From the UHGV virus genome UHGV-1944538: a DNA stretch of 11,431 bases; one strand, written 5' to 3'. This document shows positions 36-11,431 of this stretch, piece after piece (the first letter of the stretch is position 1; the number at the start of each line of letters is the position of its first letter). The notes under the pieces were generated by a model, which saw only the letters and a list, made by a program, of their open reading frames with translations, was not told where the DNA came from and made no database searches. The position numbers were made by a program, and so were the translations under genes. This DNA comes from a virus.

Positions 36-68
36 ATGGCTAAAGTTCTGGTGCTTTTACATAGCTAA
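36..68 (+). pseudogene. wrbA: 5' stub of wrbA left at attL: native start codon and first 22 nt of wrbA fused to element DNA, reading MAKVLVLLHS-stop
   Basis: 36-57 atggctaaagttctggtgcttt equals the start of the wrbA ORF whose continuation (ttattattccatgtacgg...) is found at 11321 onward; after position 57 the sequence diverges and an in-frame TAA follows at 66-68. Confidence 0.7.
51..57. repeat. attL core GTGCTTT (shared between wrbA and element)
   Basis: Left junction matches native wrbA through position 57; identical 7-mer at the right junction. Confidence 0.6.
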
Positions 69-368
69 ACACGTACATTCAACTACCTGTTAAAAACAGG
101 ACAATATCAGGTGAATCTCTATGCAATTTAAAGGCATTTCCCCAAGTATCTAAGCAGTTTTACACAGATTCTATGCAGTATCGGTATAGTCCCTTTTTAT
201 CCTAACTTATTGAAATATATAGAGAATCTGTGAAGTCTCTTTTCAGGGTAAACTGTATCGTGTTAGTCGTCCCTCTCTCGACTCCTAGAAAAGTGCTATA
301 TACAGGACTATATGACGCTATTCATGCAGTTGGTCACATGGTGTAACTATCAAACCCTTAACGATTTC

Positions 369-476
369 CTACGTGAAAGTTAGGAGTTGATGGTTATAGT
401 TCCTTCGTAGTTCCTCTTAAAAAATCACTTACAGACATCTTAATCTCTATACAGATTTCACGTAGAACACGCTTAA
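369..476 (+). repeat. Diverged third copy of the inverted-repeat element: arms CTACGTGAAA (369-378) and TTTCACGTAG (456-465), followed by CACGCTTAA (468-476)
   Basis: Arms and 3' tail identical to the 70-bp repeats at 6514 and 8659, but the spacer between arms is 77 nt instead of 38. Confidence 0.5.
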
Positions 477-993
477 TGCGTAAAAGAGTCATTATGTTAA
501 AAACGCACTGTATACGTATCAGTACTGATTTATAAGGGTTTTGTTTATTTGAAGATAAGAGGCTATACAGCACCTTGAGAGCATGTCTTGTAAGTCATTG
601 ACATATAAGGTCACAGAAGTTTGTGTCTGTTACAGAGAAAACTGGACAGGACTTCACAGAGCTATAAAATGTTACAGCTATTGATAGGTGAAATCTTCTT
701 GATAGATGCTTTGAAGTGTGGTGAAGGTTTCTTGATGTGGAGTTAACAGATGCTATGAAGAAAGTCAATAGTTGGTTATAGATATTTTAACTGCTTTTGC
801 AAAGGGGGTGCTATATCGTGAATCTGGGGTACTTAACAGCCATCAATTGAGTGTAGATATTTTTTAAGATTATCGGTGAAGGGGAATGTAGAGGGAGTGC
901 TACGATTTTTATAAAAAAATTAGAAGATGAAAAATCACTGTATAAACTTTAATCAGACCTATCGACAAGTTTATGTCAGGTCTTTATTAACTA

Positions 994-1518
994 TCAGCTA
1001 AAATTCCTGTATCCATATTTACCATGCAATTCCAGTGATGCAGCATCATAGGCTTTTGCAGCTTCTTCTGCTGTATTAAACTGACCCAGATAATGAGATT
1101 TTCCATTACAGCGTATTGTAGCCCAGAACCCCTTGTTATCCACTCTTGGGTGTACTCCCTTGTAACCTGATTTTGTTTTCTTTCTGGGTATCATGTTTGC
1201 CTGATTCTGCTCTTTGGTAACCTCTCGAAGATTGCTAATAGCATTATTTAGCGGGTCACCATCTATATGGTCAATCCATAGTTTAGCTTGTTTACCATGA
1301 TATAGATAGAAAATAACCTGATGCACCTTAAGTATTCTGAACTTACCATTAATCCGACAACCAAAAGCCAGATATTGTCTTGGTTTAGGATTTACAAGTG
1401 AACCCTCGATTTTTACACCTTTTCTAAATAATGTTCCAGATTCAAAATCTGCTGTAATATTTTCATTGATGTATCTTATAACTTCTTCAGGCCATGCCTT
1501 GGTATACCTAGTCACCAT
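994..1518 (-). CDS. HNH-AP2 family homing endonuclease (N-terminal NUMOD4/HNH_3-like domain plus C-terminal AP2 DNA-binding domain)
   Basis: 174-aa ORF. HNH-type motif WIDHIDGDPLNNAISNLREVTKEQN; AP2-type C-terminus GYKGVHPRVDNKGFWATIRCNGKSHYLGQFNTAEEAAKAYDAASLELHGKYGYRNF. AAGGA about 7 nt upstream of ATG on the minus strand. Confidence 0.85.
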   Translation of the reverse strand: MVTRYTKAWPEEVIRYINENITADFESGTLFRKGVKIEGSLVNPKPRQYLAFGCRINGKFRILKVHQVIFYLYHGKQAKLWIDHIDGDPLNNAISNLREVTKEQNQANMIPRKKTKSGYKGVHPRVDNKGFWATIRCNGKSHYLGQFNTAEEAAKAYDAASLELHGKYGYRNFS

Positions 1519-1576
1519 AATATTCCTTATTTCAATTAACTTGTTGAGGTAATACTACCAAGAAACTTCATATCAT

Positions 1577-1604
1577 ATTTTAGATAATGATTGATATACA
1601 TCAA
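1577..1604 (-). promoter_or_regulatory. Candidate sigma70-type promoter for the HNH-AP2 gene (minus strand TTGATG-N16-TAAAAT)
   Basis: Reverse complement of 1599-1604 is TTGATG and of 1577-1582 is TAAAAT, 16-nt spacer, about 60 nt upstream of the start at 1518. Confidence 0.3.
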
Positions 1605-2369
1605 AAAACTATTAAGTTCTCGGAAGAAGACTATATAGATTAATGATGCTCTTATTGTAGGAGCATCTATTCCCAACAAGGGAACTACACAGAAACTAGA
1701 GAATATGCTCTGTAACACCTTCACAGTATCTATATCAGGTCAGATTCAGAGGTCTTGATAGAATCTTCAAAGGTACTTGACAGATAACTATGAAGTTGCT
1801 AGGAAGGGATGTTTAACGGGAGGAAAGATACGATATAACCCGAAGGGAGAGTATCATCTTAACAATTATTCTTAAGAGATACCTTGAAAAGACACTTAAC
1901 AGAACCACCAAGAAGAGAGGGAACGATAAGACCCAGAGGTAGTGACCTGTTAAACAGTTCGTTTCAAAGCTCTTAAGAGTCTGTTAAGTAGGGTCATGTG
2001 ACAATCTTACCATTTTGTCAATGCTTTTGTCTTTGACCTAAATCAATAAAATGTATCGTTTGATATGTTTTTAAACAAAATAGTTAAAAATCTTTTTAGA
2101 GGTGCGCTTCGCTTGTGTCACCAATATCATTCTTCCCTGTCTAAGAGGGAAGTTACAGGGCATTTCAAAGCCCTCAATAGGCAAACCGAGGAATACGGAA
2201 AACCGAGGGAAGAAAACTATTGTGATTACCTTGAACAAGGTCTGTAAAGGTCGTTTAAGAGGTCGGTTAAGAAAGGAGCTTCCCTCTCTGGGGTTATCGC
2301 TCTTCTCTCGATTAGTGGATTGATTAAGAAGACCTCTGAAGTTTCTCTGTGAAGGTGCTGAACAGCTAT

Positions 2370-2423
2370 TATATATGGCTAATTACAACTTATTGAAAAA
2401 TAAACATTTTTAGAAATTACTGT
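2370..2423 (+). repeat. 54-bp direct repeat, copy A (TATATATGG..ATTACAACTTATTGAAAAATAA..TTTTAGAAATTACTGT)
   Basis: Aligns without gaps to 2465-2518 at a constant 95-bp offset with about 5 mismatches. Confidence 0.7.
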
Positions 2424-2464
2424 TAAGGTTGCAGAGTTGTCTGTGAAGAGACTTGTCAGTTCTC

Positions 2465-2518
2465 TATATATGGGTGATTACAACTTATTGAAAAATAAGA
2501 ACTTTTAGAAATTACTGT
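2465..2518 (+). repeat. 54-bp direct repeat, copy B
   Basis: See copy A; both lie in the ORF-poor 1725-3111 region. Confidence 0.7.
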
Positions 2519-2827
2519 CAGAGAGGTGAATACTTGATAGATACAGCTTTCCGGTTCTGTCAAGCTATTTTTTAATAGATAGCACAAAGTGCTAAAGACA
2601 CCCCTATACCATCTCGTACAGGGGGTTTTGGAGGGATTAACGGGGGTCTGTATGGTCGTTATCCTTAAGGTCAAGCGTCCATGTACGACCGAACAGTCTA
2701 AAGACAACAAGCACCCTGACGAGGACGTAGCGAAGTAACAGACCTGCGAACAGACCCACACCTCCACCAGCCCACAAATCAGGTGACCCCAATTCCTGAG
2801 GGAGATTTACCATTAAATTTCCTTGTA

Positions 2828-2925
2828 AGACGCTCTCAATCGCATTCTGACACAAAAAAGTACCTGACCTTATAGTTGACCTGAAGAGGACGTTTAACTC
2901 GTTACAGAGCGATTGAAGAGGTCTG
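2828..2925 (+). repeat. Inverted-repeat-bounded unit I (98 bp): 5' block AGACGCTCTCAATCGCATTCT..CAAAAAA, variable middle, 3' block ..CTCGTTACAGAGCGATTGAAGAGGTCTG
   Basis: 5' and 3' blocks are conserved with unit II at 4468-4588; CTCAATCGC (2835-2843) is the reverse complement of GCGATTGAG-type sequence at 2909-2917, with an extended imperfect inverted repeat of about 16 bp. Confidence 0.7.
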
Positions 2926-3031
2926 CGTGCAATGCAATAACCATGTGACCAAATACATGGCCACGCCTTTATATTTTACTCTCCCCATAGGACCATTATA
3001 CCACAGATGTTAATAAAATGTTAAAAAATAC

Positions 3032-3060
3032 TTGACATTAGCCTTTGAAACTGCTAGTAT
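3032..3060 (+). promoter_or_regulatory. Candidate sigma70-type promoter TTGACA-N17-TAGTAT upstream of the 3112 operon
   Basis: TTGACA at 3032-3037, 17-nt spacer, TAGTAT at 3055-3060, followed by TGTATATATGAGTTAACAGA; about 50 nt upstream of ATG 3112. Confidence 0.45.
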
Positions 3061-3111
3061 TGTATATATGAGTTAACAGAATAATAACATCTTATGAGGG
3101 TCAGAATATGA

Positions 3112-3666
3112 ATGAGAGATGCAGAATTTAGAGCGATGCTTCAAGCATCAAGGGAACGTAACAGACACAACGGTTACAGCTACACAGACACCCCCACCAG
3201 CTACGAAGTCCCAGCCTTTACCAAATCCGAACGTAAAAACATTGAAGCGGTCATTCGTAGCATTACGCCACGAGACAGATATATGCCAACCAGAAAGAGC
3301 ACGAAGAATAGCTTGAAACCTTTCCTGATGAGCTTTGATTCTTACGAGCAATTACCATCAAAAATTGAAGATGTAATTATCGGTACTTGTCGCAGTCTTG
3401 GAAGGGATAATTATCACCGGAAAGTTTTCTATTTACTGCGAAGTCTTGATGAGATTAGTTCAGGCGCAATAACAAATTATCTTCAGCGACAAGCAACCAG
3501 ACTTAGCTACGAATTACCGTCTGATGGGTATTGCGCTAATTTAAGTACCATTTGCAGTAAAGTTATCGAGACAATCAATCATCATGTTGAGGTTGGTAAT
3601 ATCAACCTTACGACAAGTGAGCCAGACTTTGAATTTGACGTATACGCACAAGCAGAGGAATTTTAA
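3112..3666 (+). CDS. Hypothetical protein, 184 aa, acidic C-terminus; first gene of a four-gene coupled operon
   Basis: Long ORF downstream of the promoter-like site; GAGGG upstream of the start; stop 3664-3666 sits 1 nt before the next start codon. Confidence 0.7.
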   Translation: MRDAEFRAMLQASRERNRHNGYSYTDTPTSYEVPAFTKSERKNIEAVIRSITPRDRYMPTRKSTKNSLKPFLMSFDSYEQLPSKIEDVIIGTCRSLGRDNYHRKVFYLLRSLDEISSGAITNYLQRQATRLSYELPSDGYCANLSTICSKVIETINHHVEVGNINLTTSEPDFEFDVYAQAEEF

Positions 3667-3667
3667 A

Positions 3668-3955
3668 ATGAAAAACAAACACACTTTAACCCGTATTACA
3701 AAGACAGCCTTTGACGAACTTAACCGAATCAAAAACATTACAGGTCTGCCACACTCAGCAGTGATGAAGCTTGCAATTAACCGTGATATTAACGAACAGG
3801 ATTTGCTTAATAGTCGCTTAGAGGCTGCAAGACACCATATCAGGATTAAGCAAGATGACCTTGATAGTCTGAAATCTTTAAATGTTTTTGGACTGGATTT
3901 AGCAAGGTTACTAAGTATCAAAATTCACAAGTTAGCGGATAAATTGGGGGTTTAA
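3668..3955 (+). CDS. Hypothetical small protein, 95 aa (start placed at the ATG with an RBS, not at the track's upstream ATG 3584)
   Basis: GAGGA at 3655-3659, 8 nt before ATG 3668; the track start at 3584 lies inside the preceding gene. Confidence 0.65.
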   Translation: MKNKHTLTRITKTAFDELNRIKNITGLPHSAVMKLAINRDINEQDLLNSRLEAARHHIRIKQDDLDSLKSLNVFGLDLARLLSIKIHKLADKLGV

Positions 3956-4170
3956 TGCTATGCGTTACCTTTGAATATCACACGGATAAAATGATTCGCT
4001 ACATCTCCGACCTCCTGATTGAAGGAAACGGATTCGGTGACATCCACAACTCAAAAGATATTTTCATTAAAGCCATTGGCCCAAATGAAGTACTGAAAGC
4101 AGCAGTCAAGCCAGAATGGTTTGAGCGTCACAAGATTGAATTAGGTTATTGGGGTGAGGAGGTTTTATGA
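3955..4170 (+). CDS. Hypothetical small protein, 71 aa
   Basis: Start overlaps the upstream stop (TAATG at 3953-3957); GGGGG just upstream. Confidence 0.6.
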   Translation: MLCVTFEYHTDKMIRYISDLLIEGNGFGDIHNSKDIFIKAIGPNEVLKAAVKPEWFERHKIELGYWGEEVL

Positions 4171-4454
4171 AACCTTGGCATGAAGATGTTAGACGATATT
4201 TTACAGAACACCTTATCTATGATGAATCCAGTGATTCCCTGTGCTGGTCTGATGGAGAGTCAGTCACGATAAATACCGACGACTACGGCAACAAAACATT
4301 TAATATAGGCCGATATACTTTCTACGTGAAATATGTTGTCTGGTTCCTTTATCATGGCTATCAATCCAATAAGCAAATTATCCATCTAAATGGTAACAGA
4401 GCCGATACCAGACCAAAAAATCTTATGCAAGTCCGAGACTTTAAGAGAAATTAG
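4167..4454 (+). CDS. Truncated HNH_3-like protein, 95 aa, paralogous to the N-terminal half of the HNH-AP2 endonuclease but lacking the AP2 domain
   Basis: ATGA overlap with the upstream stop; GAGGAGG RBS. WHEDVRRYFTEHLIYDESSDSLCWS and YVVWFLYHGYQSNKQIIHLNGNRADTRPKNL parallel WPEEVIRYINENITADFESGTLFRK and HQVIFYLYHGKQAKLWIDHIDGDPLNNAISNL in the 994-1518 product. Confidence 0.65.
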   Translation: MKPWHEDVRRYFTEHLIYDESSDSLCWSDGESVTINTDDYGNKTFNIGRYTFYVKYVVWFLYHGYQSNKQIIHLNGNRADTRPKNLMQVRDFKRN

Positions 4455-4467
4455 AAAAACAGCTTCT

Positions 4468-4588
4468 CAGACGCTCTCAATCGCATTCTAACGCAAAAAA
4501 CTATCTTATTTTAGGGTGGGTAATACCACTGTACAGACTACCCCTGAAAAAGACTGTTTAGCTCGTTACAGAGCGATTGAGGAGGTCT
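4468..4588 (+). repeat. Inverted-repeat-bounded unit II (121 bp), homolog of unit I with a longer variable middle
   Basis: 5' block 4468-4500 and 3' block 4551-4588 nearly identical to unit I; it fills the gap between the 4454 stop and the RBS of the 4611 gene. Confidence 0.7.
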
Positions 4589-4610
4589 GGTAAAAAGGAG
4601 ATTTTAAGAA

Positions 4611-4940
4611 ATGAGAGAATTAAACTTCCCGCTACAGATTTTCGTTGATAGCGACACTGCTATGATGGTGCAAAGCTTCACTGATGCAGGTATTAGCATT
4701 GACTTTGACAGGCTGTTAAAGCTAATGGCTGAGAACTCAGAAGCAATTGAAGATTTTATTCAGGAAATTGAAACTGGTGACCCACGTTTTATGTTTCCCG
4801 TTACCGACTCAAACATGAAGCGCCTTATTATTGAGGAAACTAACCGATACAGCGTTAGCCCTGAAAAATATCTCAAGGCGGCTATAGTAATTTTGTACGC
4901 TGACAATGTTTTGGTTACGGATTCGAAGGTGGTGCATTAA
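4611..4940 (+). CDS. Hypothetical protein, 109 aa, acidic
   Basis: AAGGAG at 4595-4600 upstream of ATG 4611; clean ORF. Confidence 0.65.
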   Translation: MRELNFPLQIFVDSDTAMMVQSFTDAGISIDFDRLLKLMAENSEAIEDFIQEIETGDPRFMFPVTDSNMKRLIIEETNRYSVSPEKYLKAAIVILYADNVLVTDSKVVH

Positions 4941-5017
4941 TGGGCTTAATAATTGCTTGGACAGCTTTGGGTTTATTTGTTGGTTGCTGGGTAGGTAACA
5001 CAGTAAATAAGAATTGA
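4940..5017 (+). CDS. Candidate 25-aa single-helix hydrophobic peptide (MGLIIAWTALGLFVGCWVGNTVNKN), translationally coupled to the upstream gene
   Basis: ATG overlaps the upstream TAA; AAGGTGG at 4926-4932, 7 nt before the ATG. Not in the ORF track because of its size. Confidence 0.35.
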   Translation: MGLIIAWTALGLFVGCWVGNTVNKN

Positions 5018-5041
5018 TGTTACCAATCTGTTAAAAAGCTG

Positions 5042-5070
5042 TTGACAAATAACCTTGAGCATGACATAAT
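5042..5070 (+). promoter_or_regulatory. Candidate sigma70-type promoter TTGACA-N17-CATAAT
   Basis: TTGACA 5042-5047, 17-nt spacer, CATAAT 5065-5070, followed by TGTATATATAGG as at the 3032 promoter. Confidence 0.45.
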
Positions 5071-5076
5071 TGTATA

Positions 5077-5268
5077 TATAGGAAGAGCAATTTTTCCTAA
5101 AATCATATTTTCAATAATCCGATGGATGGATATTCTGAGTTGGAAAGGTGCAATGCTTTTCGTCATGGCCTTTCAGTTTAGTCTGAGAGGCTATCTCAAA
5201 AAGTCTTTGTTCATTCATTATTGAACCCTTACAGCTTTGCCCTAATCATGAGTTAGGGCGTTTTCTTT
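5077..5268 (+). ncRNA. Candidate small RNA of about 190 nt between promoter 5042-5070 and the intrinsic terminator at 5239-5268; could instead encode a small hydrophobic peptide
   Basis: Promoter and terminator bracket a region with no RBS-preceded ORF; the track ORF 5042-5224 begins at the -35 hexamer itself. An internal 23-codon frame (5152-5223, MLFVMAFQFSLRGYLKKSLFIHY) lacks a good RBS. Confidence 0.3.
5239..5268 (+). terminator. Rho-independent terminator: stem GCCCTAA/TTAGGGC, 7-nt loop, then GTTTTCTTT
   Basis: Perfect 7-bp stem at 5239-5245 and 5253-5259 followed by a T-rich tract. Confidence 0.5.
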
Positions 5269-5337
5269 AAGAGTTTTAAACAGAGCTTTTAAAGAAAGTT
5301 TTTCCTGAAACTTCGTTAACGTTATAAGCAAACCTCC

Positions 5338-5370
5338 AAAGCCCTTCACAGAAACGTTTAGGGCTTTTCT
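5338..5370 (+). terminator. Second, weaker terminator-like hairpin: AAGCCCT ... AGGGCTT then TTCTT
   Basis: 7-bp stem with a 14-nt loop and a T-rich tail; shares the GCCCT..TTAGGGC..TTT pattern with the 5239 hairpin. Confidence 0.3.
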
Positions 5371-5468
5371 TAATAGAGCATCTTTAATAAATCGTTAAGT
5401 CATCTTCTAAGTGTATTGGCGTTGAAGGTGCTCTATTAAGAAATAAACCACACTTAGAGGAAGTTATA

Positions 5469-6179
5469 ATGACAAACGATTTATATATTAACGGTAAAAA
5501 GGTTGATAGCTTCGGTGACTGGTCGCCACAGACTGAACATCCAGCTATCGCTATTCAGCGTCAAGAGCATGACAAGCGCATTGAGCTTGAGCAAGAGCTA
5601 AAGATGTCACCAAAAACAACCATCTTTGTGTCTCCTGAGCCTCAAGAGATGCCTGATATTTGCAAGAGTGAAGCATTATTTAATCTTGAGCGTGAATATT
5701 ACCCACTGCTAAAAGAACAGCGCCTTAGATTAGATGACGCTTACGACAATGTGAAGAACTTTGAAGAGACTGAAAAGCCAACTGATTTTGATATTGAAGT
5801 GGAAATTAGACAAAACCCATTCGTATATTACTCAGTTGAGGATAATGATGGTTTTGGTACAGCAAGAGAGAATATCTCAAAAGTTCTTCAAAACATCCCT
5901 GAAGGATTCCGTTTAATTGATGTCAGACCAGCTTCACGCGGTACAGGTTCATATATTTTACTGTCTGATAAAACAGATGAAGAGATTTGTCAGTTAGCTG
6001 AAAAGAATCTACTTGAGCGTCATAGCAAAAAATTAAACAGATTTAAGCAAGAGCTTGCTAACCAGCTTAGAGCTATGAAGCAACTAATCAGTGACTATGA
6101 AACGCAGAAGAAGGTTGCTATGCAAGCCGATATTGAGCAGCTTACGAAGATTTCTCAGAAATATAGCAAGGCACTTTAA
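5469..6179 (+). CDS. Hypothetical protein, 236 aa, acidic with a predicted coiled-coil C-terminal third
   Basis: GAGGAAG 6 nt upstream of the ATG; long clean ORF; the C-terminus has a heptad-like charged pattern. Confidence 0.7.
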   Translation: MTNDLYINGKKVDSFGDWSPQTEHPAIAIQRQEHDKRIELEQELKMSPKTTIFVSPEPQEMPDICKSEALFNLEREYYPLLKEQRLRLDDAYDNVKNFEETEKPTDFDIEVEIRQNPFVYYSVEDNDGFGTARENISKVLQNIPEGFRLIDVRPASRGTGSYILLSDKTDEEICQLAEKNLLERHSKKLNRFKQELANQLRAMKQLISDYETQKKVAMQADIEQLTKISQKYSKAL

Positions 6180-6201
6180 CTATGAATTAAAGAGGTGATT
6201 A

Positions 6202-6411
6202 ATGTTTGAAGAACGTTTAGAGACTATTCGGTCTGTTTGTGAAAACTTAAAGTTACAAAATAAGCCAACCTTAAGAATTAAAAACAAACGTCAAGTTATC
6301 ACCTCACACAAACCAAAAACACGCAAGATTCCAAAATGGTGTATTGACCGTATCCCTTCTGATGCTCAAATCATAGGTGAAACGGAATTACATTATCTTG
6401 TCAGGCATTAA
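6202..6411 (+). CDS. Hypothetical small basic protein, 69 aa
   Basis: AAGAGGTGA RBS 5 nt upstream; Lys/Arg-rich; followed by a terminator-like hairpin. Confidence 0.6.
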   Translation: MFEERLETIRSVCENLKLQNKPTLRIKNKRQVITSHKPKTRKIPKWCIDRIPSDAQIIGETELHYLVRH

Positions 6412-6463
6412 AAAAAAAGAATTGGTTGGGTGTATGAGATAGGTTCTATCGAATCTATAACAC

Positions 6464-6506
6464 GGGGAGAGATTATCGATATTATTCGGTAGTTTCTCCC
6501 TTTTTT
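6464..6506 (+). terminator. Terminator-like hairpin (GGGAGA ... TCTCCC) followed by TTTTTT
   Basis: 6-bp G/C-rich stem at 6465-6470 and 6495-6500 with a long loop containing ATCGAT, then T6 at 6501-6506, immediately before repeat copy 1. Confidence 0.45.
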
Positions 6507-6513
6507 GTATGTG

Positions 6514-6583
6514 TGCTACGTGAAATCTTCTGAACAGATATACCCACCAAAAATTATTTTTTACGTAGCTCACGCTTAACAGA
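6514..6583 (+). repeat. 70-bp direct repeat, copy 1, containing an 11-bp inverted repeat (GCTACGTGAAA ... TTTTACGTAGC, one mismatch) and a CACGCTTAACAGA tail; lies immediately upstream of the 6599 gene
   Basis: 67 of 70 identity with 8659-8728. Confidence 0.8.
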
Positions 6584-6598
6584 GGTGAAATATGAACA

Positions 6599-8647
6599 AT
6601 GGCACAATTTAAAGTTGATAGTTTTATCGTTGAGCTAGGCTTCAGCGAGAACGTTATTAAGGGCTTGCAAAGAGTTGAAAAGGCAGCTTTGCAGTCAGCA
6701 CAAAGAATTGAACGTAATTTGAATAGAGCGTTTAAGGTCGATACCAAGCAATTTGACAGCAATCTGACAAGTTCTTTGAAGTCAATGGAAGGAAAAATTA
6801 ATAAGACCTTTGACCGTCTGGAAGCTAGAGCAAAAAATACTAAAGCTTTCCAGTTTACCACCAGATTTAATGACACTGTTAATCCTCCAAAACAACCGAG
6901 ACAGCCACGAATTAGCGGAAACAGAGCAATCACAGCAGCTTATTCAGCTAATATGACCAAGCTGAAAGGTCTTAACCCAATTGTCGAGAAATACATTAAG
7001 AGCCAGTTTTACGCATTAAGTAGTAAAGCTGGTCAGATGGATAACACCAAGTTTAATGAAGCCCTTGCTAAACTAAATTCAAGTGTAAGAGAAGCAATCA
7101 CTAAAGCCAGAGGTCATACATCCACCAGCATTAACGGTGACAGAGCAGCTAATAGTCTTGATAGTTTGAGTTCAGCAGCAGTTAAAACAGCAGGTGCATT
7201 TATCAGCTTTCAAGCTGTACTATCCGCTTATCAGCGAGTAATGGAAGTTGGCCTTCAACGTGCATCATCGGAAAGAAGTATTGATTTCGTATTTGATAAA
7301 GATGCAGGCCAAGTAAAAGAGTTCACAAAGTCATTAGCTCAAACAACGGGTTTAGATATCGCTGAACTGCAATCACAGTTTGCTGGTTTTGGTGCTTCAG
7401 CTAAAGAGTCTATGGGTATTCAAGGTTCTGAAGAACTTTTTAAAAGTATGATTGGCTATTCTCGTTTAATGGGTCGAAGTGAAGAAGAGATTAAGCGAGC
7501 ACTGACAGCATTATCACAGATGGCTGGTAAGGGTCAGATTATGGCTGAAGAGCTTAAGGGGCAATTAGCTGAAGCTGTTCCTGGTATGGTTCAGGTATTC
7601 GCTAAAGCAACCGGAAAGACTGAACAGGAATTATTTGATGCCATGAAGAAGGGGGCTTTAAAATCTGCCGATACTCTTCAGAAGGTCACTCAGGAACTGA
7701 ATAGACAAATCACCGCTAAAGGTGGCTGGAAAGCTATTTCAGAAAGTACACAGGCACAGCTAGGGAACCTGAAAAACTCTTGGAATACCACGCTTGATAG
7801 TATCTTCAGAGGTTCTGAAAATGGTCTGCAAGATTTCACACGAAGCCTAACAACGCTTTTAAACGCTCTTGGTGGAAGTGGTAAAACATTAGGTGAAAGT
7901 TTTGGTAGCTTGATGAGCGATATGTCACATGGTGTCGATAACCTGACTGATATTAGTTACAGGGTAAGGGCGTTCTTTGACGAGGTGACATTGGCTTATC
8001 GTGGTTTAACCGATGAACAAAAGAAAGTTGTTGATGCTTTAGGTTCTGGCTTGATTAATAGTTTAAAAGTCTTGGCTGGTGTTATTGCTGTGAATAAAGT
8101 TGTTGGTGTAACCAGAAGTATTTACGGGCTTATGACTGCTATCACAAGATTAGGTCAGGTCGCTGATACTACAGTGGATAACGTGAATAGAAAGAACGGG
8201 AAACCATCAAGGTTTAATCTTGGGAATATGCTATTAGCTGGTAGTGCTATCTATGCAGGTTATGAGAGATTAGCTTCTACGCCTGAACGAATGGAAGCAC
8301 AAGCTAAATTACCAGAGCTGGCTAAAGAGTCTGGACTTAAGCCAGTATTTACTATGGACGATGTGAAAGGTTGGTTTAATAGTGCAGCTATGAATCTTGC
8401 TAACTTCCAGCATCCAGAATTAATCACCATGAGACAAGATGCGGCATTAACGAATACGGATATCCAAAGCCTGAGAGATGAAATTAGTGCTTTGAGCAAA
8501 CGTATTCAGGAGCCTGTGAAAGTTTCACTTGGTGGTGAAGTTGCCATTAAACCAGATGAAACCAGCTTTATGACCTTTAGCAGTAATATCTACGACCAAT
8601 ACGCAGAAGCTACGCTATTAAGTTCATCATTCCCAGAAGATGATTGA
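6599..8647 (+). CDS. 682-aa protein with a tape-measure-type domain (central GKGQIMAEELKGQLAEAVPGMVQVFAKATGKTEQELFDAMKKGALKSADTLQKVTQEL segment) and a coiled-coil-rich N-terminus
   Basis: Long ORF; the central segment resembles, from memory, the conserved domain of siphovirus/lambdoid tape measure proteins. GAGGTG lies 11 nt upstream of the ATG. Domain assignment not verified by search. Confidence 0.75.
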   Translation: MAQFKVDSFIVELGFSENVIKGLQRVEKAALQSAQRIERNLNRAFKVDTKQFDSNLTSSLKSMEGKINKTFDRLEARAKNTKAFQFTTRFNDTVNPPKQPRQPRISGNRAITAAYSANMTKLKGLNPIVEKYIKSQFYALSSKAGQMDNTKFNEALAKLNSSVREAITKARGHTSTSINGDRAANSLDSLSSAAVKTAGAFISFQAVLSAYQRVMEVGLQRASSERSIDFVFDKDAGQVKEFTKSLAQTTGLDIAELQSQFAGFGASAKESMGIQGSEELFKSMIGYSRLMGRSEEEIKRALTALSQMAGKGQIMAEELKGQLAEAVPGMVQVFAKATGKTEQELFDAMKKGALKSADTLQKVTQELNRQITAKGGWKAISESTQAQLGNLKNSWNTTLDSIFRGSENGLQDFTRSLTTLLNALGGSGKTLGESFGSLMSDMSHGVDNLTDISYRVRAFFDEVTLAYRGLTDEQKKVVDALGSGLINSLKVLAGVIAVNKVVGVTRSIYGLMTAITRLGQVADTTVDNVNRKNGKPSRFNLGNMLLAGSAIYAGYERLASTPERMEAQAKLPELAKESGLKPVFTMDDVKGWFNSAAMNLANFQHPELITMRQDAALTNTDIQSLRDEISALSKRIQEPVKVSLGGEVAIKPDETSFMTFSSNIYDQYAEATLLSSSFPEDD

Positions 8648-8658
8648 TAATAGTCGAA

Positions 8659-8728
8659 TGCTACGTGAAATCTCCTGAACGGATATACCCACCAAAAATT
8701 ATTTTTCACGTAGCTCACGCTTAACAGA
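8659..8728 (+). repeat. 70-bp direct repeat, copy 2 (perfect 11-bp inverted arms GCTACGTGAAA / TTTCACGTAGC), immediately after the 6599-8647 gene and upstream of the 8805 gene
   Basis: Near-identical to 6514-6583; the two copies bracket the tape-measure-like gene. Confidence 0.8.
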
Positions 8729-8804
8729 TAAAACACTTATATATCAAAGGCTTGGTTAAAAATGATTAAAATACACTAAGCCTTTGAAATCAAAGGAGAA
8801 TTTA

Positions 8805-9578
8805 ATGATTTACACTAATCAGCTTCGTTACACTGGCAAAGATGGCGTTTACTTCCACTTAAGAGATAATGTAGATGCCTTCTTAACTTTATCAGCAACT
8901 GAAAATATGGAATTTGACAGCCCTATGCAGGTAACTACACAGAACATGCAATCAGGGCAAACCGTCACAGATAATGTGCAAAGAGCACCCAGAACAATCA
9001 CTATTAGCGGTGTCGTTGTAGTTGGCTATGAAGGAAGCTTATTATTAACTCGTCAGGGTCAATTAGTAGAAAACTTCATTGACACTCTTGAAAGCTGGAG
9101 AGACCAGAAGCAAATTATTTCGGTCATCTGTAAAGACGGTATCAAAATTGATGATTCCATTATTACGAGTTTTAAAGCCTCTAAAGATGTTGGTATTTCA
9201 AATGGTCTAAGAGTCCAGCTAACTTTTCAGGAAATTAACTTTAAAGCTATTGTGGGTCAGACTGATATTTCATCTGCGACTGGAAAAGCCGCGACTACTA
9301 ATGATGGTGGTGCTACCAGTAAAAAGAATGCGGGTAACGTGACTACTGAACGCAATAACGCACCTATGTTGCTGTGTCAGGAACTGTACAGCTACTCAGC
9401 ATCTGAGCTATCTGATGAAGCGTTAAAAGCCCGTAGTAATTGCTCTAAAAATGTCACGGTGAAAGATGGTGTAAGCACCTTCTCAGATGCCGCTAATGCG
9501 CAAGCTTCAAAAGTGCTTAAGTCGGGTAATGCTTTACGGAAGTTTAGTGTGAATCCGAATAAGAAGGGCACTTATTGA
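8805..9578 (+). CDS. Hypothetical protein, 257 aa, with a Ser/Thr/Asn/Gly-rich linker ([30 protein letters not shown]); positionally a possible tail-module partner of the upstream gene
   Basis: AGGAG at 8794-8798, 6 nt before ATG 8805; the track's earlier start at 8784 is a TTG without an RBS. No confident domain assignment. Confidence 0.65.
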
Positions 9579-9594
9579 TTGGTAACAATACCAA
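9577..9594. other. Hairpin (ATTGGTA-ACAA-TACCAAT) in the 19-bp gap between convergent genes; possible bidirectional terminator
   Basis: Perfect 7-bp inverted repeat between the stop codons at 9576-9578 (plus) and 9598-9600 (minus); A/T-rich, so weak. Confidence 0.25.
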
Positions 9595-9597
9595 TTC

Positions 9598-11241
9598 CTA
9601 AGCGTCCACCTCTTCCATATCACCAGCAGGATAAATCCTTGTTACTGGTTCACCAAAAATAAGCATATCATCTAGTGACTGCATCTCATCGGTTGCTTCT
9701 TCAAGCGTTAAGGTGTGGTCATCTTTACCATCAAGAGGGAAACCACGAATCATATTTCCATTGTGAAGATATATATCAACCAGCTTTTCATTACCAGAAA
9801 CAACAATCTCTTTCACCAGACGCTTAATGATAATCTGGGCTTCAGTTCTCCCCTCTACAGACTCCATATCAAGACCGCTTAAATCCAAGCTTGATACAGA
9901 TTTTACCCTCGCCTTTTCTCGTGATAACTGAACTATCAGTTCATCTTTTTCTTCCTGCTTAATCCGTAGTGCTTCTTGAATCTGAGTGATGTTAGGAAGC
10001 TGTATCAGCGTCTCAGTGAGTTTTTCCAGTTCACTATCAACGGTGTTTAGTCTGCGTTGTAGCTCATCTAATTTAGCTGTGTCAGTAGCTTCATCGTGTA
10101 GCTGTGACAGTTTGCTGAACAGACGACTACAAAGCTGTGTATCAAGTAACTTTCTGGACACTGTACCGTAGCTACAACGGGACTCCTTATTACCATTGCA
10201 ACGGTAAGTACCTTGATAAACGGGTTTACGTATCCCTGTAGGAGTCATTACAAGCCCACACTTACAACGGATAAGCCCCTTCAGTATGTTCACATATAGC
10301 CAGTGTTCACCGCTGGATGTTTTCCCCTTCCCTGTTTCCTCTAACAGTTGCTGTACAGCGTAAAACTTAGAGTCTGTGACAATCTGAGGATAGAACCCTT
10401 CAATTTCTTCACGTAACACTGTTTTACGGTCTTCTGTAGAAATCTTAGCGGGAAGGTAACCTAATACACTTCGTGAAGTCAGGATGTGTTTAACGCTTAA
10501 TGCTGACCAGTTGCCATCCGGTTTCTTAGTCTTGGATATTCTGACCTTACGCTGATTAATGGTCGGGTAACCTTGTTCGTTTAGCCATTTGCAGATAGCA
10601 AACATCGACATACCAGAAAGACGCTTGTCATAGATGATATTCACCAGTGACGCTTTATCTTCATCAACGATGTAGTGTGAACCGTCTTCTGATAGCTCTA
10701 ACCATCCGGGGGCTTGCTTACCCATAGGCTTCTTAAGTTCTCTTGCAAGCTGTGTTTTATGGTTCCAGACCTGAGCTATACGCTTTTGCTTAACAAGAGA
10801 TTCTTGGTGTGCTCGCTCAGCTATGATGATGTGCTTAATCAACTTCACAGGGTCTGTTAATGCTGATTTGTCGTAGAGTTCACCATCTCCCAGAGTCAGT
10901 ATAGAGACCCCTTTCCTCAGTATCTGCCTGACATCATCTATAGCTGTGTCGATATCAGCCCTACTGAAGCGGTCAAAGTTCTCTACAACAATCAAGGAAC
11001 CTTCTGGAATAGCCTCAGACATAACATTTTCAAACATACGTCTGAAGTCAGAACCTTGATTCTTATGTTGCTGGTGAAAACCAGATTTACCCTTATCAAC
11101 ATATCTGTGAGCAGGAAGAAGGTAATAATCGTTTTTGTGCTTAGAGTAGAAAGCATCAATGAGGTTTGTTTGCCGTCTTAAGGAGTCTCCTGAGTCTTGC
11201 TCTTTAGTACTCCACCTGATGTATGTCACTAGCAGCTTCAT
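9598..11241 (-). CDS. int: Large serine recombinase (serine integrase) of the element
   Basis: 547 aa. N-terminal resolvase-type motif YIRWSTKEQ with a candidate nucleophile Ser; Cys-rich zinc-ribbon-like segment [11 protein letters not shown]...[14 protein letters not shown]; C-terminal coiled coil. Located next to attR and read inward. Confidence 0.9.
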
Positions 11242-11292
11242 ATCTTCGGACTATGCTTATCTAAGTGGTTCATTGAACAGGAGAACAATGAT

Positions 11293-11431
11293 ATGAGTGT
11301 TAAGGCAAGAATACTAGTGCTTTATTATTCCATGTACGGACATATTGAAACGATGGCACGCGCAGTTGCTGAGGGTGCAAGCAAAGTCGATGGCGCAGAA
11401 GTTGTCGTTAAGCGTGTACCGGAAACCATGC
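11293..11431 (+). CDS. wrbA: wrbA, NAD(P)H:quinone oxidoreductase, 5' part with element-supplied start ([46 protein letters not shown]); partial, runs off the window
   Basis: From 11317 the sequence and translation match the WrbA N-terminus as I remember it (native [43 protein letters not shown]); AGGAG at 11279-11283 upstream of the new ATG. Confidence 0.85.
11317..11323. repeat. attR core GTGCTTT
   Basis: Identical to 51-57; wrbA identity resumes exactly here. Confidence 0.6.

Follow-up and report, generated by a model that had tools for sequence, protein, structure and literature searches.

The viral genome UHGV-1944538 (11,431 nucleotides; this whole stretch is called the window below) encodes a phage tape measure protein (TMP) followed by a second tail protein. 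The question raised by this locus is what such a pair does outside a tail module, and why the TMP gene is flanked by two 70-bp direct repeats. Three answers had been offered when the sequence was first read (the original prediction): a satellite-encoded tail component redirecting the tail assembly of a helper phage, a recombination cassette, or a tape-measure-derived protein with another role. Our analysis shows that the window holds an island which carries diverged yet intact copies of two adjacent tail proteins of the genus Felixounavirus and no other virion gene. The first of the three answers fits best and is partly supported.

The presence of a tape-measure domain in the 682-aa product of the gene at 6599-8647 (+ strand) was confirmed by profile search, with matches above the respective cut-offs to Pfam TMP_3 (PF20155; E = 9.9e-20, 71.5 bits for a cut-off of 41) and to TIGR02675 (1.9e-14, 53.7 bits for a cut-off of 21.35). 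The protein also matched phrog_4036 (tail length tape measure; 1e-82) and PDB 9ndy_F, which is gp17 of phage Bas63 as seen in the virion structure (E = 6e-68). The downstream 257-aa protein (8805-9578, + strand) matched Pfam Dit_like (PF21821; 3.4e-20), phrog_3721 over its full length (2.5e-132) and, with residues 5-256 aligned, PDB 9ndy_A, the 'Tube initiator protein (gp018)' of the Felixounavirus Bas63 (265 aa; E = 8.8e-122). This protein had been assigned to the position of a siphovirus distal tail protein. Its membership of a Dit-like family holds, but since the putative helper lineage, Felixounavirus, is a myovirus lineage, it is a tail tube initiator equivalent to Bas63 gp18 and not a siphovirus distal tail protein. 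In Bas63 the initiator forms a hexamer adapting the 3-fold hub to the 6-fold tube and consists of a tube-like fold with a C-terminal extension of ∼100 aa across the baseplate, and the last 25 residues of the TMP reach the baseplate tip, where they touch the hub (gp20) and the PA protein (gp21) (PMC12609058).

Among the best 20-25 records of each search, all the phage matches of the tail pair were Felix O1-like myoviruses of the genus Felixounavirus. The phage homologs do sit inside full tail modules: in phage garuso (85.8-kb genome) the order is TAC, TAC, TMP (735 aa), a 266-aa initiator and the baseplate genes. Gp17 and gp18 of Bas63 are direct homologs of the island pair, with the same gene order and the same terminal motifs; unlike the island pair, they lie in a complete tail module, and the C-terminal extension of the initiator has been replaced in the island. 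The island TMP aligns end to end with that of garuso at 31% overall identity. Its first ∼45 residues are ∼80% identical and the terminal motif LLSSS[FY]PE[DE][DE] is conserved, whereas the body is ∼30% identical and ∼165 residues ahead of the conserved C-terminal end could not be aligned. In the initiator, residues 5-180 (tube-like domain) share ∼97% identity with their phage counterpart, and the C-terminal ∼75 residues have diverged except for the last 12. The extension has kept a phage-like length and is ∼30-55% identical in blocks of 40 columns; the AF2 model of the initiator, built from a shallow alignment, has a pLDDT of 39. Both proteins keep the parts that touch other phage components in the phage structure, namely the N-terminal ∼45 residues and the extreme C-terminus of the TMP and the whole tube-like domain of the initiator, while the TMP body and the C-terminal extension of the initiator are specific to the island. 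In 18 surveyed islands the TMPs range from 679 to 725 aa, always below those of garuso (735 aa) and Bas63 (742 aa); that of the window falls short of the two phage proteins by 53-60 aa.

When the 17 other open reading frames of at least 57 aa were all scanned against Pfam, PHROG and PADLOC, no gene for tube, sheath, chaperone, hub, capsid or terminase emerged. This is in agreement with the original prediction, in which no tail tube, sheath, chaperone or baseplate gene was seen nearby, and the TMP gene thus lies outside any chaperone-baseplate tail module. No more than three island genes have a homolog in garuso: the TMP gene, the initiator gene and a cargo gene for an HNH-AP2 protein. Both tail genes are intact in 18/18 surveyed islands where the locus is complete, with dN/dS values of 0.26-0.43 for the TMP and 0.13-0.23 for the initiator, and the pair is under purifying selection. 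At the nucleotide level, identity to garuso reaches 94.6% at 8834-9329 (496 nt), 85.9% at 6598-6682 and 96% at 9549-9576. Because the identity of the alternative common island allele of the initiator tube domain to any phage does not exceed 87%, the allele of the window, at 94.6%, looks like the product of a fairly recent gene conversion from a phage; such an event would mean that island and phage DNA meet in one cell.

The window corresponds almost exactly to one island of 11.26 kb (58-11316) with its flanks. E. coli wrbA is split between positions 1-57 and 11317-11431, two parts that are contiguous in ∼5400 of 5426 complete genomes, so that 58-11316 is an insertion; the left flank is identical to wrbA of island-free genomes. 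The core GTGCTTT is found as attL at 51-57, within the 5' end of wrbA (native ATG at 37) and immediately before the first island position, and as attR at 11317-11323, at the right border. The insertion point is at codon ∼6 of wrbA. Since the island brings its own ribosome-binding site, an ATG at 11293 and replacement first codons, wrbA stays intact beside it and is annotated as complete. The insertion was made by the island's own large serine recombinase (547 aa, 9598-11241, − strand), which matched Pfam Resolvase and Recombinase and phrog_95 (integrase; 5e-77), a Zn_ribbon_recom match being below the Pfam cut-off. Related islands with the same gene order were found at yciI/tonB and in yecE, with serine recombinases that are only ∼35% identical. 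The TMP/initiator module is present in 480 of the 5426 complete E. coli genomes (∼9%), mostly at 80-90% identity and at several attachment sites, and, going by the names given to the source proteins, family members also occur in Shigella, E. marmotae, Salmonella and Citrobacter. The island is thus a member of a large family in E. coli, Shigella, Salmonella and Citrobacter.

The two repeats, at 6514-6583 and 8659-8728 (+ strand), were found as predicted: they are in direct orientation, identical at 67 of 70 positions and 2145 nt apart. In each copy, an 11-bp inverted repeat, GCTACGTGAAA ... TTTCACGTAGC, extends over 55 bp and is accompanied by a conserved inner motif, ATACCCAC, and a conserved 3' flank, CACGCTTAA. 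With at most one mismatch allowed, the 11-mer arm GCTACGTGAAA occurs 7 times for 0.18 expected, and the repeat is not explicable by chance. Copy 1 (arms 6515-6525 and 6559-6569) ends 16 nt before the TMP start and directly follows an intrinsic terminator (6464-6507, + strand; 16-pair stem at 6464-6501 and a T-run) that is conserved in 5/5 aligned islands. Copy 2 (arms 8660-8670 and 8704-8714) lies after the TMP stop and before the initiator gene, and a conserved hairpin with a 13-bp stem (8744-8795, + strand; z-score −3.9) stands between it and the initiator ribosome-binding site. As copy 1 follows a terminator, each copy sits upstream of one tail gene, rather than the two copies marking the ends of one unit. 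The palindrome was detected upstream of the initiator gene in 18/18 islands and upstream of the TMP gene in 8/18. At the latter position the element may be absent exactly at the palindrome borders, be replaced, or belong to another inner variant than the downstream copy. The bracketing of the TMP gene by repeats therefore holds for the window, where both copies are present, but only a few other islands share the near-identical pair, which is not a conserved bracket. Most likely, the repeats are cis-regulatory sites, acting as an operator or as a 5'-leader hairpin and allowing separate control of the two tail genes.

Mimicry of phage promoters was considered and rejected: a blastn search of 50,697 phage records with the repeat was empty, and the garuso genome has neither arm pairs nor inner motifs. 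Rfam gave no family in the window, and elsewhere only spurious mir-137 hairpin matches; the literature search on the arm sequence returned only unrelated papers. In strain ES5 (∼14490-14550 of locus L002, upstream of TMP) the palindrome is replaced by an unrelated small hairpin, GGATAGTCTTCTATCC, flanked by a TATGA duplication, and small hairpins seem to insert preferentially at this spot. Short-read (Logan) assemblies of carriers stop within repeat copy 2, 128 nt ahead of the initiator gene, because the 70-mer is duplicated.

Taken as a whole, the island resembles the PLE satellites of Vibrio cholerae, which parasitize the phage ICP1. All PLEs encode a TMP and a chaperone, some also BhuB, and the PLE TMP is incorporated in PLE virions; in PLE11 virions the PLE TMP and BhuB stand in place of those of ICP1 and the tails are 10 nm shorter, and transduction by delta-tmp mutants is reduced by 96-99.9% (Mathur et al. 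2025; PMC11838301). The Pfam Dit_like domain also occurs in ICP1 gp78 (BhuB; 1949-2563 of locus L234), which comes after the TMP, the ICP1 tail module being syntenic with that of Felixounavirus; gp78, gp79 and gp81 of ICP1 carry the same Pfam families. Like a PLE, the island is chromosomal, is associated with a virulent myovirus and has few virion genes; it encodes its own TMP and the next-encoded protein, each distantly similar to the copy of the helper, and the satellite TMP is shorter than that of the helper. PLEs are integrated by a large serine recombinase, as is the island, and both possess genes derived from homing endonucleases (in the island, a 174-aa HNH_3 and AP2 protein and a 95-aa short HNH_3 protein). 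The features of a PLE-type satellite found in the window are thus an integrative island that has att sites and a large serine recombinase, the lack of capsid, terminase and most tail genes, and an own TMP together with a hub-proximal Dit-like protein, both related to their counterparts in a virulent myovirus. As a separate observation, gp78 of ICP1 and some Felixounavirus initiator genes are labelled 'endolysin' (phrog_1517, phrog_380) despite their Dit_like tube-initiator domain; these labels are probably a propagated mis-annotation.

Because the island pair is the counterpart of the TMP and BhuB of PLE11, drawn from its own phage lineage, we cautiously favour, by analogy, the view that the island is a PLE-like satellite, or a tail-interfering island, of virulent Felixounaviruses, which would make chimeric tails and use the repeats as cis-regulatory sites. 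Upon infection by a Felix O1-like phage, phages of this group being virulent, the island would express its TMP and initiator, and these would replace their phage counterparts at the start of tail assembly. The chimeric tails should be slightly shorter than those of the phage, because island TMPs have 679-725 residues for 735-742 in the phages. They would carry the island to new cells, impair the tail assembly of the helper, or both, and the palindromes upstream of each tail gene would put TMP and initiator under separate control.

Several observations weigh against this reading. No recognisable chaperone, replication initiator, capsid-size or packaging gene was detected with Pfam, PHROG, PADLOC and PDB searches, and all the contigs encoding the exact initiator protein are chromosomal (17/17). 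A lock between the C-termini of TMP and initiator was considered, but their alleles reassort independently between islands, and as the C-terminal alleles do not co-vary a cognate-pair lock is unsupported. The lack of arm pairs and inner motifs in garuso leaves control by the helper not evident from the sequence, and a sigma70 promoter was not detected within the palindromic element. Excised or circular island contigs were also sought; every context was chromosomal, and the short Logan contigs merely end at the repeat.

PLEs belong to V. cholerae and ICP1, the 11.3-kb island to E. coli and, as putative helper, Felixounavirus, and the island is known from sequence alone. Unlike PLEs, here compared by description, it has no detected tail chaperone or RepA_N initiator and no recognisable TcaP-like scaffold, CapR-like regulator or other PLE-type function. 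None of its open reading frames matched PF21822 (phage chaperone family), any other TAC family or RepA_N, and PDB searches with three small open reading frames gave nothing. The tube domain of the island initiator is nearly identical to that of the helper, whereas the PLE BhuB is 41% identical. Markers of PICI, cfPICI and P4-like satellites (alpA, pri-rep or primase, terS, capsid genes, sid, psu and delta) were absent from all open reading frames in Pfam and PHROG searches. The satellites of Barth et al. (2023; PMC10448857), also compared by description, share some features with the island: they occur in E. coli, encode a putative TMP and a baseplate component with the remaining tail genes missing, and a subset has a serine recombinase. 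In contrast to the island, these satellites have as their defining genes those for a RepA_N initiator, a major capsid protein and a decoration protein, none of which was found in the island with Pfam and PHROG; most have a tyrosine integrase beside tRNA genes; and they are linked to Justusliebigvirus, whereas the island tail genes derive from Felixounavirus. In the searchable literature no island or satellite associated with Felixounavirus is described. The principle is therefore known, while the family, the helper lineage and the regulatory palindromes appear to be new, the kin systems being compared by description.

An alternative is that the island serves for anti-phage defence alone, the TMP and initiator being dominant-negative decoys of Felixounavirus tail assembly, and that it is never packaged and moves by other means. 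The conservation of the termini that dock to phage parts next to diverged bodies speaks for a decoy, the packaging and capsid genes were not found, and interference with tail assembly is a known defence strategy (PMC11364771; for Rta, PMC11838301). Nevertheless, PADLOC gave no match in the island, a decoy would have no need for a full-length TMP of narrow length range (679-725 aa), and the island has its own integrase and many attachment sites; the PLE precedent shows, moreover, that interference and transduction can coexist. We consider a pure defence role unlikely.

The distribution of the palindrome outside the islands bears on the two next explanations. Pattern scans revealed this architecture, CTACGTGAA...TTCACGTAG with arms of up to ∼21 nt, at a sharply preferred span of 53 nt (53-55 bp in the islands): in viral contigs, 41 of 132 pattern matches span exactly 53 nt, and bacterial contigs sampled at one genome per species yielded 105 elements, nearly all in Gammaproteobacteria. 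A Cre-like recombinase gene lies downstream of 12 of these 105 copies, 11 of them at 19-38 nt and one at 100 nt. In P1 (NC_005856) the element is at 116-173, where it overlaps the promoter P3cre just upstream of cra-cre. The remaining copies are singly scattered in intergenic DNA, sometimes in several copies per genome and often with an internal terminator-like hairpin; integron-like palindrome arrays were not seen in other genomes. The P1 palindrome resembles that of the island by its arms, CTACGT[G/A]AAATCTG ... CAGATTTC[A/G]CGTAG, its 53-nt span and its position 19-38 nt before a start codon, but differs by its inner sequence, its unrelated downstream genes and the lack of an annotated function, the island arms being shorter (11 nt). 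A regulator common to the islands and P1-like phages was rejected, as no homolog of an island protein occurs in the P1-like loci. The element is a separate lead in itself, as a conserved 53-bp structure found upstream of P1 cre and in many mobile genetic elements. It is conceivable, though in our estimation quite improbable, that the island family is a satellite, widespread in Enterobacteriaceae, of virulent Felix O1-like phages and remakes the core of the helper tail, and that its palindromes represent a class of elements, protein-bound or recombinogenic, which has gone unrecognised and is also found in P1-like phage-plasmids, beside Cre-like recombinases, and in many genomes of gammaproteobacteria; the palindromes would then serve to regulate tail-gene expression or to exchange tail genes as modules.

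Recombination proper, with the repeats as homologous or site-specific recombination sites and the TMP gene as an exchangeable or deletable cassette, is still harder to sustain. The copies are direct and 96% identical, the upstream copy is present or absent precisely at the palindrome borders, the TMP alleles are highly mosaic, and the same type of palindrome adjoins Cre-like recombinase genes elsewhere. But the upstream copy is missing in 10/18 islands, the two copies are often different variants, and the mosaic breakpoints fall inside the TMP gene, so that a cassette is not supported. Moreover, both genes are present at every locus examined, the one TMP that seemed to be missing having proved to be divergent; no tyrosine recombinase is encoded in the island; and the elements elsewhere are single in intergenic DNA and not in arrays. 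Arms ∼33 nt apart fit no recombinase site that we know of, which also counts against the cassette, and we regard it as very improbable. As for a remnant of a decayed prophage tail module, the adjacency of the two genes in phage order is outweighed by the virulence of Felix O1-like phages, the lack of a tail, capsid or terminase match in any other island gene, the intact and selected state of both open reading frames (dN/dS 0.13-0.43, well below 1) and the recurrence of the same two-gene set in 480 genomes, within a conserved island of 11 kb and at several attachment sites, so that decay is ruled out for all practical purposes.

If the island is a satellite, the remodelling of tails by a satellite TMP and a hub-proximal protein would not be peculiar to the PLEs of Vibrio, and would have arisen independently in E. 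coli against another genus of virulent phages. The system should be easy to study, with the genetics of the host, the BASEL phage Bas63 whose virion structure is solved, and the module carried by ∼9% of complete E. coli genomes. It would matter, too, for phage therapy and biocontrol, in which Felix O1-like phages find wide use, as carriers may resist the phage or turn the infection into a spread of the island.

Seven core genes of the island at 3112-6411 (+ strand), coding for proteins of 184, 95, 71, 95, 109, 236 and 69 aa, have a conserved order in related islands. Apart from the HNH_3 domain of the second 95-aa protein (short HNH_3, 4167-4454, + strand, conserved), they had no Pfam, PADLOC or PDB sequence match. 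The first 95-aa protein is ribbon-helix-helix-like by eye only, and no phage homolog of it was found. The 236-aa protein (5469-6179) has more than 3000 homologs and is labelled 'transposase' in RefSeq; its model (pLDDT 75) consists of long helices and a small alpha/beta domain, without a Foldseek match at E <0.2 and without a Pfam, NCBIfam or PADLOC match, so that neither family nor fold supports the label. On the opposite strand, at 994-1518, the homing-endonuclease-like cargo protein of 174 aa matched Pfam HNH_3 (3.5e-14) and AP2 (3.5e-06), the latter at 27.7 bits and thus under the Pfam cut-off of 33.3 bits. It is 43% identical to an HNH endonuclease of garuso, and its gene is variable cargo that only some islands have.

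Non-coding DNA is conserved at two places in the left part of the island. The segment at 85-951, in which no coding sequence is annotated, recurs with 86-88% identity in islands that occupy other attachment sites. Within it lie a wider palindrome pair (arms 368-378 and 456-466, span 99) and, at 682-707, degenerate copies of the arms, and these ∼870 bp may be a candidate cis site for packaging, replication or excision. The 1.4-kb region at 1725-3111, upstream of the first core gene, includes a tandem duplication of ∼95 bp (2343-2531) with 54-nt cores at 2370-2423 and 2465-2518 that are 91% identical, and is a possible candidate for an origin, iteron or regulatory region. It also holds the first copy of a promoter-like cassette (2822-2925, + strand), which lies upstream of the 184-aa gene and includes a sigma70-like match, CTGACA-18-TATAGT, at 2847-2876. 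A second copy (4463-4589) precedes the 109-aa gene. Pieces of the two copies are 82-94% identical, and regulatory modules thus seem to be reused within the island.

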